DNA of 27,432 nucleotides from IMG/VR virus record IMGVR_UViG_3300017989_000061, one strand, 5' to 3'. Shown here piece by piece: positions 5,492-27,432 of the stretch (position 1 is the first letter of the stretch; every line of letters starts with the position of its first letter). The notes under the pieces were generated by a model, which saw only the letters and a program-made list of their open reading frames with translations, was not told the origin of the DNA and did not search any database. Made by a program: the position numbers and the translations under genes. This DNA is from an uncultured virus (IMG/VR IMGVR_UViG_3300017989_000061) (Duplodnaviria; Heunggongvirae; Uroviricota; Caudoviricetes).

Positions 5492-5714
5492 ATATATCCC
5501 AGACAGTGCCGAACGAATCAATCGACCTGTCAAACGACGTGGCGGAATCCTGAATCTCGCTCCCGGACAATCAGAAGATGGTTACGGAAGCAAAATCACT
5601 ACCGATACAATGGTCCGACTCGATAACCGACTTTATCGTGTCTACGCTACCTGCTACTCCAACGTAGCAAGTCACTGGATCATCAAAGGTGGACAGAAAC
5701 TTCATCTGAGGTAA
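5475..5714 (+). CDS. Phage hypothetical protein (GYGxKI..RVY..CYSN)
   Basis: Overlapping ORF; motif typical of small phage proteins. Confidence 0.75.
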   Translation: MKSKIEYIPDSAERINRPVKRRGGILNLAPGQSEDGYGSKITTDTMVRLDNRLYRVYATCYSNVASHWIIKGGQKLHLR

Positions 5715-5933
5715 ACAATTACTCAACGAAATCAGAATCAAACCAAATTGCGGGGCGAGATTCCAAGAAACTGAATTGGGTTATCATCCTGATCTCCCAA
5801 AATTACGAGAAACAGTTTTGCTCGCTCCCAAAACTGCCGAACAACTTGAAAACGCTCTCGCAGCTTGCCAGCGGTCACTCGCAAAAGCTGACACCCGGTA
5901 ACAAAACATCCAATCACTCACCGGGAGAACAAA

Positions 5934-14269: not shown

Positions 14270-14325
14270 TTCATCGGTGAATCGGAAGCTGAGTGATCCT
14301 GTTTTTTTGAAAAGGAGCGAGATTG

Positions 14326-14778
14326 ATGGGGCCATTTAACCCGCAGTATGGACCGATTGATCGAGAGAAGGAATGCAGTGTTTTGCTTCCTAATGGTCTC
14401 CGACTGGTTTGTCCTGCTTATCCGGCTGAATGTGAATATGTTCGGTTGGTGGACTCAAACGGTTTTGAGATGGTTATGTGGGAAGCTTCTGAATGGGCAG
14501 AAGAACCATTGACTGTGATGGGTGCCATCATGGGAGCTGTTAGTCGGGAAACGGATATTCCAGAGACATTTACGGTTGAGCCTTGTGATTTGAATAAAGG
14601 TGACACCGTGATATATGAAACTGACACGATTTGTCATGAGAAGACAGTTGAATCTGTCTTTGAGGACCACTCGAAGTCATATTACGAGTGCGTAGTTCGT
14701 TTCAAGGATGATCCAGAGGAATATATGTTTGGTGAAGGCGACAGATTGCCATTGGTTCCCAAAGTGGACACCCAGTAA
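14326..14778 (+). CDS. Hypothetical acidic protein
   Basis: AAGGAG RBS. Confidence 0.8.
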   Translation: MGPFNPQYGPIDREKECSVLLPNGLRLVCPAYPAECEYVRLVDSNGFEMVMWEASEWAEEPLTVMGAIMGAVSRETDIPETFTVEPCDLNKGDTVIYETDTICHEKTVESVFEDHSKSYYECVVRFKDDPEEYMFGEGDRLPLVPKVDTQ

Positions 14779-14802
14779 GAAAAGACAGAGAGGAAGTCCC
14801 AC

Positions 14803-14835
14803 GGGGGATGAGTGTGTTGCTTGTCCCTCATTTTG
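14803..14835 (+). terminator. Possible hairpin/terminator upstream of the tRNA-like RNA
   Basis: GGGGGATGAGT/GCTTGTCCCTC stem (G-U rich) followed by ATTTT. Confidence 0.3.
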
Positions 14836-14843
14836 AAACACAT

Positions 14844-14960
14844 GGTGCAGTCAGGTAGAGTTCAGCAAATATGTCTCCTTTGGCAGAAAGGCCCGAGAGA
14901 CACGGGAAAAGTATGTTGAAGGTTTGCTGAAATGGGAGTTCAAGTCTCTCCTGCATCACC
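14844..14960 (+). ncRNA. tRNA-like / mini-tmRNA-like RNA
   Basis: Acceptor GGTGCAG/CTGCATC+ACC, T-arm GGGAG-TTCAAGT-CTCTC, unpaired D-loop, 10-bp helix replacing the anticodon arm. Confidence 0.6.
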
Positions 14961-14977
14961 GAACAAGGGTTTTATTG

Positions 14978-15130
14978 ATGATTCATCCTAAGACCCCAGA
15001 GGAATGGGCAGAATACGAGAAGCGAGTTCGAGCCTATGAAGAAAAGGGTTTAACTCGTAGTGATGCACAGGGTGTAGTGGATGTTGAGTGGCACAATGAG
15101 CGATCAGTGACACCCGACAAGACAGTGTGA
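14978..15130 (+). CDS. Small hypothetical protein (GLTRSDAQGVVD motif)
   Basis: ATG 14978 lies downstream of the RNA element. Confidence 0.6.
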   Translation: MIHPKTPEEWAEYEKRVRAYEEKGLTRSDAQGVVDVEWHNERSVTPDKTV

Positions 15131-15168
15131 ATGACAACTTTTTTCCTAGTTTTGCAGAGGACTACAGA

Positions 15169-16116
15169 ATGGCTACGGCATTGAACGCAGGTGACGTGAA
15201 GCGTCGGGATTACTTTTTCGTTGATCCCAACGAAATCATCGTCAAGGACGATCTTCGAGGTCGGAAATTTGCACCGACAGAGGCTGATATCATCAGTCGT
15301 GCAATTTCCATGTTGGAAAAGACTCAGTTGCAGCCGGTCATGGCTCGCCGAGTTCAGGACAAAAAACTTCAGTTGGTTCTGGGATTCACCCGAACTGCTG
15401 CTGCCCGTCTGATCCGCAGTGGATTTGAGCACGAAGGGGTTCAGTACCATGATCCCGAGTTCACGCTCAAGGTGATCGTTGCCGATTGCAACGATAAGGA
15501 AGCTTTGTACCGCAATATCGCCGAGAACAACGAGCGAAATGCTTGTTCGGACATCGACGATGCTCACAACCAGAACCGGATGCGTGAGCACGGTGACAGT
15601 GACACGGACATCGCCAAGTTTTATGGTTGTTCTGTGACTCAGGTTGGCAAGCTCCGCAAGCTGCTGTCTCTGAGTGATGAGGAGCAGCGAATGGTTCACC
15701 TTGGTCAGCTTCCGACGCAGGTTGCTGTTGATCTGCTGGATGTGGACACCGAGGAACGAGCAGCAATCATCGCCAAGTGTCAGAAGGACAACGGCAAGGT
15801 GAGTGGTTCGGATGTTCGATCACAGTTGCGAGATCATCATCTCGCCGACGTGGACGATGATGATTCGGAAGCTGATGCGATTTTCGGTGAAGCTCCGGCA
15901 CCTTCGGACCAGAAGCCTGCTAAGAGCATTACCCGCTCGATTCGGGAACTGAAGACTTACCTGAACTCACGTCTGGAAGACGAAAAGTTCGAGGACTTTC
16001 ATGATGTGATGAATGTCCTGCTTGAGTGGCAGGCAGGTAACAAGTCTGACAAACAGATGGACAATGCTTTCCGCCGACTGGAACAGAAGAAGCCTAGTAA
16101 GCGAAAGGCAGCTTGA
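15169..16116 (+). CDS. ParB-like protein (ParB/Srx N-terminal domain + HTH)
   Basis: QLQPVMAR..LVLGFTRTAAA, ENNER, HTH DTDIAKFYGCSVTQVGKLRKLLSL; GAGGA RBS. Confidence 0.85.
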   Translation: MATALNAGDVKRRDYFFVDPNEIIVKDDLRGRKFAPTEADIISRAISMLEKTQLQPVMARRVQDKKLQLVLGFTRTAAARLIRSGFEHEGVQYHDPEFTLKVIVADCNDKEALYRNIAENNERNACSDIDDAHNQNRMREHGDSDTDIAKFYGCSVTQVGKLRKLLSLSDEEQRMVHLGQLPTQVAVDLLDVDTEERAAIIAKCQKDNGKVSGSDVRSQLRDHHLADVDDDDSEADAIFGEAPAPSDQKPAKSITRSIRELKTYLNSRLEDEKFEDFHDVMNVLLEWQAGNKSDKQMDNAFRRLEQKKPSKRKAA

Positions 16117-27235: not shown

Positions 27236-27432
27236 AGCCTCTGGCAAAGGCAAGTCAACTAGGTGGAGAAGTCCAATGGAGTAGTCAGCCTGAATCCCTG
27301 ATGCACCCGGTTGTGGCAGGGTAGGGCGTTAAGTAACCGGGGGCACGGTCACGAGGAGCGCCAACGTGGTGGTGGCCGTGTCACAGTTAACTCTTTCGGG
27401 GATGAATGGTATTGACAGGCTATCACGCTGAA
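27236..27432 (+). ncRNA. Candidate structured RNA, possibly truncated by the window end
   Basis: AGCCTG/CAGGCT, CCCGGTT/AACCGGG and GCACGGTCAC/GTGGCCGTGT stems; no ORF in the track. Confidence 0.45.

Follow-up and report, generated by a model that had tools for sequence, protein, structure and literature searches.

What is a gene that begins and ends like a transfer RNA (tRNA) and carries a long hairpin where the anticodon arm should be? The question is raised by a 117-nucleotide (nt) element at positions 14844-14960 (plus strand) of a 27,432-nt stretch of DNA from an uncultured virus of the Caudoviricetes (IMG/VR record IMGVR_UViG_3300017989_000061), referred to below, at its full length, as the window. 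The window is the minus strand of positions 134501-161932 of a 234,631-base-pair (bp) IMG/VR record (G000), judged 44% complete, and genome-wide statements below refer to that record. The original prediction, made from the letters alone, described the element as a tRNA mimic with the architecture of a transfer-messenger RNA (tmRNA) and took it for a novel kind of RNA, an interpretation that our analysis partly supports. We found the element to be a gene made up of the upper half and the elbow of a tRNA, with a rod-shaped long hairpin replacing the anticodon arm; that is, a well-formed gene on a tRNA frame, which the standard tests identify neither as a tRNA nor as a tmRNA. The reading that we favor, and to which we give about an even chance, is that it encodes an expressed, non-decoding tRNA mimic that is matured by RNase P and CCA addition and acts in trans, either as a decoy or as a hairpin scaffolded on a tRNA frame.

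The outer parts of this layout had all been described in the original prediction, and a check of the sequence found every one of them where it had been placed (all on the plus strand); the minimum free energy (MFE) fold recovers the three helices among them. At the 5' end, GGTGCAG (14844-14850) pairs at seven of seven positions with CTGCATC (14951-14957) to form an acceptor stem, seen in the sequence, the MFE fold and the alignment to the Rfam tRNA model RF00005; the 7-bp register of this stem runs G1-C72, G2-U71, U3-A70 and includes one G-U, at 2:71 (pair probability ~0.7). Directly before the 3' acceptor strand stands a T arm, GGGAG-TTCAAGT-CTCTC (14934-14950; pair probability ~0.65), with a 5-bp stem, a G-C closure and a loop that fits TTCRANN, and directly after it stand a discriminator A and CC (14958-14960), the next base being G and the terminal A of CCA not being encoded. 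The place of the D arm is taken by ten nucleotides, TCAGGTAGAG (14851-14860), which are unpaired in the MFE fold and on which the RF00005 model places a D arm at low posterior probability only; read from the sequence, this segment places a U at tRNA position 8, and its GG could play the G18-G19 role and make elbow contacts. Next comes a central helix formed by TTCAGCAAAT (14861-14870) and its complement GTTTGCTGAA (14922-14931), which is supported by the sequence, the MFE fold and the pair probabilities (0.65-0.86 for nine pairs and 0.11 for the tenth, a U-G) and whose 10 bp are as long as the D and anticodon stems of a tRNA stacked together. In the MFE fold, a 2-nt connector, AT (14932-14933), sits where a variable region would be. 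All 22 outer pairs (7 + 10 + 5) are intact, only three of them being G-U, and the fold that recovers the acceptor stem, the central helix and the T arm has an energy of -37.4 kcal/mol vs. -29.5 +/- 3.6 kcal/mol for shuffled sequences.

Where an anticodon loop is expected, the MFE fold and the pair probabilities place instead a structured module of 51 nt (14871-14921). In its favored fold, a 7-nt bulge leads to a helix of 9 bp (positions 34-42 of the element with 71-79; probability ~0.78), which is followed by an internal loop and a CCCG-AGAGACA-CGGG hairpin (pair probabilities 0.75-0.79 overall); this fold contains no 7-nt loop with a U33. Among the inner pairings proposed originally, CCCG/CGGG is well supported (~0.79), TGTCTC/GAGACA is a minor form (~0.2) and CCTTT/AAAGG is essentially absent (~0); the last two could never both form in full because they have one base in common. 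We also considered a pseudoknot combining TGTCTC/GAGACA with CCCG/CGGG and judged it sterically implausible because no linker separates the last two strands. The idea that the interior is a repeated mobile insert was dropped, as the genome holds no second copy of the 51 nt. Taken literally, the claim that there is no room for a tag open reading frame (ORF) does not hold, as a frame of 19 codons (ATG...TGA) can be read straight from the sequence at 14871-14930; no ribosome-binding site was found for this frame, however, and nothing favors its use.

By the standards of a tRNA, the element has the right ends, i.e., an acceptor stem and a T arm complete at 7/7 and 5/5 pairs and a loop of the T-psi-C type (TTCAAGT), and the wrong middle, as there is neither a D stem nor an anticodon stem of 5 bp capped by a 7-nt loop (with U33 and a purine at 37). 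On a narrow stretch around the element, RF00005 reaches 20.7 bits (E 0.024), short of its gathering threshold of 29, and aligns the acceptor stem and the T arm at high posterior probability, with 51 nt replacing 17 anticodon-arm model positions; the same score makes the element the fourth-best tRNA-like locus of the genome (E 0.0099 genome-wide). No Rfam family matched in the 27-kb window at gathering thresholds, and ARAGORN called no gene at the element, or anywhere in the window, by default or with introns allowed (-i). Lowering the ARAGORN threshold to 80% produces a "tRNA-Phe(GAA)" with a 46-nt intron at the element, a model that we treat as noise because the same setting makes 465 calls in 234 kb. 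The element does not look like an intron-containing tRNA in other respects either: the insert would be 46-51 nt long, no recognizable intron class or means of splicing was found, the group I intron model (RF00028) has no match in the element, and no gene for RtcB or a tRNA-splicing endonuclease (tRNA_int_endo) was found in the 234-kb record. A weak match to mascRNA (14.1 bits vs. a cut-off of 42.5) was set aside as likeness of the T arm only.

The comparison with tmRNA gave a divided answer. The layout that the original prediction had likened to the tRNA-like domain (TLD) of tmRNA is borne out by the Rfam tmRNA consensus (RF00023), which has a 7-bp acceptor, ~10 unpaired nt, a 10-bp helix, 1 nt and a T arm, as against 7 bp, 10 nt, 10 bp, 2 nt and a T arm here; that is, the element has the unpaired D-loop, the long P2-like helix and the 1-2 nt before the T arm that characterize the domain. 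Kinship with tmRNA is a different matter. The element is unmatched by RF00023 at E<=10 and is absent from the three matches that the model has in the genome at E<=0.01, and a separate, true mini-tmRNA is present in the same genome (below). As had also been predicted, the G3:U70 pair of alanine identity is missing in the 7-bp register, where the only acceptor G-U is the one at 2:71; a G-U would come to lie at 3:70 only if the stem were read as 8 bp, with the upstream T and A14958 included.

To assess how readily such an architecture arises by chance, we scanned for a T arm (five pairs, a closing G-C and a TTCRANN loop) followed directly by a strand that has a 7/7 pairing partner 60-200 nt upstream. 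Five such sites occur in the real record (234,631 bp), compared to an average of 0.35 and never more than 2 in 100 first-order Markov simulations. When the scan was made strict (an NCC tail and no more than one G-U among the acceptor pairs), any hit at all occurred in one of the 100 simulations. The four further sites in the real record are an accepted tRNA gene, an accepted tmRNA gene, a 67-nt tRNA and a 149-nt unit next to tRNAs. Therefore, the architecture of the element is non-random.

The element fills a 199-nt gap between the stop of the previous ORF (14778) and the next ATG (14981), lies on the same strand as all neighboring ORFs and ends 20 nt short of the next ribosome-binding region. 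Downstream are a 49-aa ORF and then, 170 nt from the element, a ParB-like gene (15127-16116; PF17762 HTH_ParB; phrog_1033), and the element lies in a block of small ORFs that is hypervariable and not shared by relatives. The locus recurs, whole or in part, in 11 DNA sequencing runs from six studies (sediment and seawater, 2018-2024), two of which (X6 and X7) yield a 151-nt contig that is identical over 14849-14999, while two other runs carry diverged contigs, with 13 differences across 14746-15700 (X8) and 31 differences plus 12 gap positions across 14515-15147 (X11), counted over these spans as a whole. The record that contains the window has genes for a major head protein, a portal, a large terminase and baseplate parts. 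The head protein has relatives encoded in 385 IMG/VR stretches, and the 80 that were kept include a 458,813-bp record that is 91% complete. The source is therefore a huge phage of roughly 0.5 Mb.

Two signals lie between the element and the preceding ORF. An 11-bp hairpin followed by AUUUUG (14803-14835, plus strand; fold of 14770-15000) bears a weak resemblance to a terminator of the ORF that ends at 14778, weak because the consensus terminator scan did not flag it. Further upstream, at 14767-14773 and 71 nt before the element, is the heptamer GACACCC, which occurs 53 times on the plus strand and never on the minus strand of the window, and 118 vs. 0 times genome-wide, where ~8.4 occurrences are expected per strand. 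There is about one copy per small gene (e.g., 14767, 5890, 25599 and 27200 in the window; about 120-220 kb in the record); the extended consensus is GACACCC-A-N-T-A-A, and copies often stand right before an ATG or over a stop codon (an ATG within 0-3 nt in 23/118 copies; N[GC]TAA following in 21/118). The heptamer may be a promoter or (translation-)initiation-region motif of this phage, and if so the RNA would be started separately, 71 nt ahead of the element. Within the element, a sigma-70-like promoter was considered and dropped (one found vs. 1.3 expected).

The element is not the only unusual tRNA-frame gene of this genome. The nearest one, ~12.4 kb downstream, is a 140-nt tmRNA (134421-134560 of the record, minus strand; its first 60 nt are 27373-27432 of the window) that scores 53.7 bits on RF00023 (cut-off 47), has G3:U70 and a tmRNA-type D-loop, and carries 78 nt in place of 308 model positions; the tag that ARAGORN calls for it is atypical, DNEKRPMFRSCLG*. 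It looks like a shortened or tag-degenerate phage tmRNA; a 335-nt tmRNA (82.7 bits) is found instead in the 91%-complete relative. A 67-nt tRNA without a D stem (211217-211284, minus strand; 29.9 bits on RF00005, cut-off 29) consists of a 7-bp acceptor, a GG loop of ~8-12 nt, an extended anticodon helix with a UUCUAAA loop (anticodon CUA), 1 nt and a T arm. A cluster of three units (5522-5914, plus strand) comprises a 149-nt acceptor/T-arm unit that encloses a second T-arm-like hairpin (24.9 bits on RF00005 for the 3' part of the unit), a canonical tRNA(CUA) at 5677-5751 and a "tRNA-Asn(GUU)" with an insert of ~83-91 nt in its anticodon loop (33.4 bits), and the record also has a tRNA-Leu(UAA) that bears a group-I-like intron. 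Two amber-reading tRNAs, the canonical and the 67-nt one, are thus present, and we found no sign that the phage recodes TAG (coding density 0.85 with the standard code vs. 0.89 with TAG read through). CCA is encoded by none of the five other acceptor/T-arm genes that a scan of the genome found, and the phage encodes a tRNA nucleotidyltransferase-type protein (107671-109137 of the record; phrog_2244, E 6.5e-27; PF01743, E 3.4e-17). No SmpB gene was found in the 44%-complete record. In related huge phages (G009 172457-172595 and 173017-173122; G002 161547-161634), tRNA arrays contain more odd tRNA-frame genes, i.e., a 139-nt unit that lacks an anticodon loop and is missed by ARAGORN, a tRNA-Leu(UAA) with a 22-nt hairpin and a tRNA-Thr(UGU) with a 17-nt hairpin after the anticodon loop.

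The claim of a novel kind of RNA does not hold, since T4 RNAC and T5 RNA1 and RNA2 are already annotated and the oversized tRNA genes of Lak megaphages are in print. T5 RNA1 (144 nt; NC_005859 30501-30644) and RNA2 (125 nt; 32959-33083) are annotated as "tRNA-like stable RNA with unknown functions", and in the folds that we computed they resemble the element, also phage-encoded and of similar size, in having an acceptor-type stem, a canonical T arm and a long irregular arm at the place of the anticodon arm. They differ from it in keeping a D arm and an extra arm and in lying inside a tRNA gene cluster, whereas the element lacks a D stem and stands alone among small ORFs. RNAC (species 1 RNA, 139 nt) and RNAD (119 nt) of phage T4 are stable RNAs whose roles are stated to be unknown (PMC3014915, PMC9697503); RNAC shares with the element a terminal stem, a T arm (CCGGG-UUCGAAU-CCCGG) and long hairpins, the fold of RNAD shows no T arm, and both differ from the element in their imperfect terminal stem and in adjoining tRNA genes. 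Sequence gives no specific relation to any of these: with filters off, a covariance model of the element gives up to 24.4 bits to ordinary tRNAs of T4 and T5, compared to 14.9 for T4 RNAC, 11.8 for the mini-tmRNA of its own genome and 9.9 for T5 RNA1, and what the element shares with other RNAs is therefore the generic upper half of a tRNA. A second match of the model in the record (213851-213961; 21.5 bits, filters off) was put down to chance because a T-loop is missing there and the match falls within a 160-aa ORF. Likewise, homology between the interior of the element and that of the mini-tmRNA was rejected, the common AAAGGCCC not being significant (p about 0.14-0.19; a score of that level was matched by 144.5 per 1000 shuffles and by 573/3000 genome windows).

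Two further systems are relevant. Mycobacteriophage DS6A has a TLD-only tmRNA of 79 nt, which we located at JN698994 28478-28556 and which is described as hardly more than a TLD and as inhibitory to tmRNA (PMC4131195, PMC11915505). Like the tmRNA TLD in general, this RNA and the 140-nt tmRNA share with the element a 7-bp acceptor, a ~10-nt GG loop, a ~10-bp helix, 1-2 nt and a T arm; they both have G3:U70, whereas the element lacks that pair, the conserved sequences of the D-loop and before the T arm, and any Rfam tmRNA score. In Lak megaphages, tRNA genes of excessive size are reported that carry "enigmatic introns" (Devoto et al. 2019, PMC6784885). They resemble the element in being tRNA frames of huge phages whose length exceeds that of a tRNA and which standard tools leave unclassified, and they differ from it in that an anticodon is reported to be assignable once the insert is removed, the element being left with no credible anticodon loop. 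Judged by these likenesses, the element would belong with T4 RNAC and T5 RNA1/RNA2, with which it has in common tRNA ends (a terminal stem and a T arm) and a long non-decoding arm but not the location in a tRNA cluster; what differs is its TLD-like core without a D stem.

We favor the reading of an expressed, non-decoding tRNA mimic because of the architecture and its chance controls, the position in an ORF gap, the RF00005 alignment, the T4 and T5 precedents and the recurrence across DNA runs, and because the same genome holds other minimal tRNA-frame genes (the 140-nt tmRNA and the 67-nt tRNA) together with a nucleotidyltransferase-type protein. Transcription, processing and stability, as well as a decoy or scaffold role, are what we infer from these observations, as follows. 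The element would be transcribed together with the rightward small-ORF block and cut at G14844 by the host RNase P; its 3' end would be trimmed to ...ACC and the CCA completed by a nucleotidyltransferase such as the one that the phage encodes; and a product of about 117-118 nt would accumulate as a stable RNA. In that RNA, the acceptor stem, the T arm and the GG-containing D-loop may fold as the minihelix and elbow of a tRNA, giving an L shape in which the 10-bp helix takes the space of the stacked D and anticodon stems and presents the 51-nt module at the anticodon-loop end. With such a module where the anticodon loop would be, the RNA could therefore not read codons. It may serve to titrate a reader of the tRNA upper half, i.e., EF-Tu, a tRNA-directed defense protein or an enzyme that processes, modifies or charges tRNAs, or else the tRNA frame may stabilize the inner hairpin as a scaffold. 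The decoy for anticodon nucleases that had been suggested originally is unlikely because there is no anticodon loop.

Several observations weigh against this reading. The element appears, from the searches made, to be a sequence orphan, with no relative beyond identical or near-identical strain copies: a distant-mode blastn search of 14300-15700 against 50,697 phage records and one of 14323-16116 against 16 related huge-phage records (0/16) gave nothing, an exact 25-nt pattern found one IMG/VR contig, whose copy is 100% identical, and the covariance model matched only the element itself across all 17 phage records. The flanking genes are not syntenic in relatives, where the ParB-like neighbor and the upstream ORF, used as synteny anchors, each gave weak non-syntenic matches in 1/16 records. 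The ParB-like protein has 74 metagenome homologues at E<=1e-10, and its alignment gave three IMG/VR and 40 metagenome loci; in the 40 metagenome loci the covariance model matched the identical contig only, apart from a 23-nt match to the stem alone (E 0.81), and no comparable RNA stands upstream of the ParB-like gene in any of the 42 diverged (non-identical) loci. A strict architecture scan, which required an uninterrupted central helix of at least 7 bp, found in six related records (1.51 Mb) this element only. An orphan such as this could be a recent, neutral derivative. Further, the folding energy beats that of shuffles only modestly (z -2.18; 5/200 shuffles fold as well), there is a terminator-like hairpin just upstream, with no validated promoter known, no RNA run is among the sequencing runs in which the locus occurs, and the element lies outside any tRNA cluster, unlike the T4 and T5 RNAs, ARAGORN finding 0 genes in the window.

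The same orphan status, across the 17 phage records, the 40 metagenome loci and the phage collection, together with the location in a hypervariable block that relatives do not share and the damaged-looking or insert-bearing tRNA genes of related phages, speaks for a decaying relic, i.e., a one-time tRNA or tmRNA gene that was deprived of its D stem and its anticodon arm by insertion or rearrangement and is now neutral DNA or gives a non-functional transcript. We consider this unlikely: decay should leave mismatches, and all outer pairs are intact and the T loop and the GG canonical, and the locus persists in runs sampled over the period 2018-2024, neither of which amounts to proof. Mere chance resemblance, for which one could cite the modest z value and the 0.35 loose hits expected per genome, is exceedingly improbable in our view given the rarity of strict hits in the simulations, a 10-bp helix placed exactly between the D-loop and the T arm, and the position in an intergenic gap on the coding strand. 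It is quite unlikely, too, that the element acts in cis, as a processing or regulatory mark at which RNase P and the 3' tRNA-processing machinery would cut a polycistronic transcript, parting the upstream message from the 49-aa ORF and the ParB-like gene or setting their stability. The original prediction had raised this possibility, and the location, precisely in the gap between two genes of the same orientation and 20 nt ahead of the next ribosome-binding region, would suit such a role, but a minimal acceptor/T-arm unit suffices for cutting, leaving the 71-nt central arm unexplained, and the upstream terminator-like hairpin speaks against simple read-through.

Two other readings would tie the element to translation more directly. 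It might inhibit or compete with trans-translation in the manner of the TLD-only tmRNA of DS6A, by binding SmpB or entering stalled ribosomes, and it does have the domain layout of both the tmRNA consensus and the 79-nt DS6A RNA; one study reports that a molecule of similar kind is a strong inhibitor of tmRNA, perhaps through titration of SmpB (PMC4131195). We regard this as very unlikely, as the element has no G3:U70, no RF00023 match and, unlike the 140-nt tmRNA and the Rfam consensus, no GGAC-type segment before the T arm, a bona fide mini-tmRNA to whose interior it bears no significant likeness is already in the genome, and SmpB was not found in the record, which is 44% complete. Alternatively, it could be a D-stem-less tRNA with an insert, from which removal of about 46-51 nt would give a short decoding tRNA like the 67-nt tRNA(CUA), the possible 7-nt loops being GUUGAAG (anticodon UGA) or UUGAAGG (anticodon GAA). 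The lowered-threshold ARAGORN model of a tRNA-Phe(GAA), the anticodon-loop inserts of 17, 22 and about 83 nt in the genome and its relatives, and the "enigmatic introns" reported in the oversized tRNAs of Lak phages (PMC6784885) are consistent with it. Nonetheless, that ARAGORN setting is the one that gives 465 calls, the insert would lie 5' of the anticodon rather than at the 37/38 site, would be below the size of a group I intron and has no RF00028 match, the favored fold has no bulge-helix-bulge motif, and neither RtcB nor a tRNA-splicing endonuclease was found in the record; we thus hold this reading to be very improbable indeed.

Beyond the favored reading of a non-decoding tRNA mimic, a bolder version is conceivable, in which the D-stem-less, TLD-type frame is a general platform of this phage, used for the 140-nt mini-tmRNA and the 67-nt CUA tRNA and, in the 117-nt RNA, for an active effector. 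We think this rather unlikely. Under it, the 117-nt RNA, charged or uncharged, would be a ribosome-directed or SmpB/EF-Tu-directed mimic and not a passive relic, and the 51-nt module at its decoding end might block, sense or redirect host translation quality control or tRNA-directed defense.

To our knowledge, non-decoding tRNA look-alikes of phages have been represented by the T4 and T5 examples for decades with no function assigned to them. The element described here adds one case to that known puzzle rather than opening a new one. It is a clean, minimal case, consisting of the upper half and the elbow of a tRNA, no D stem and a single long arm, and if it is expressed, it would offer a compact substrate with which to ask what such mimics bind, be it RNase P, the CCA enzyme, EF-Tu, SmpB or defense nucleases.

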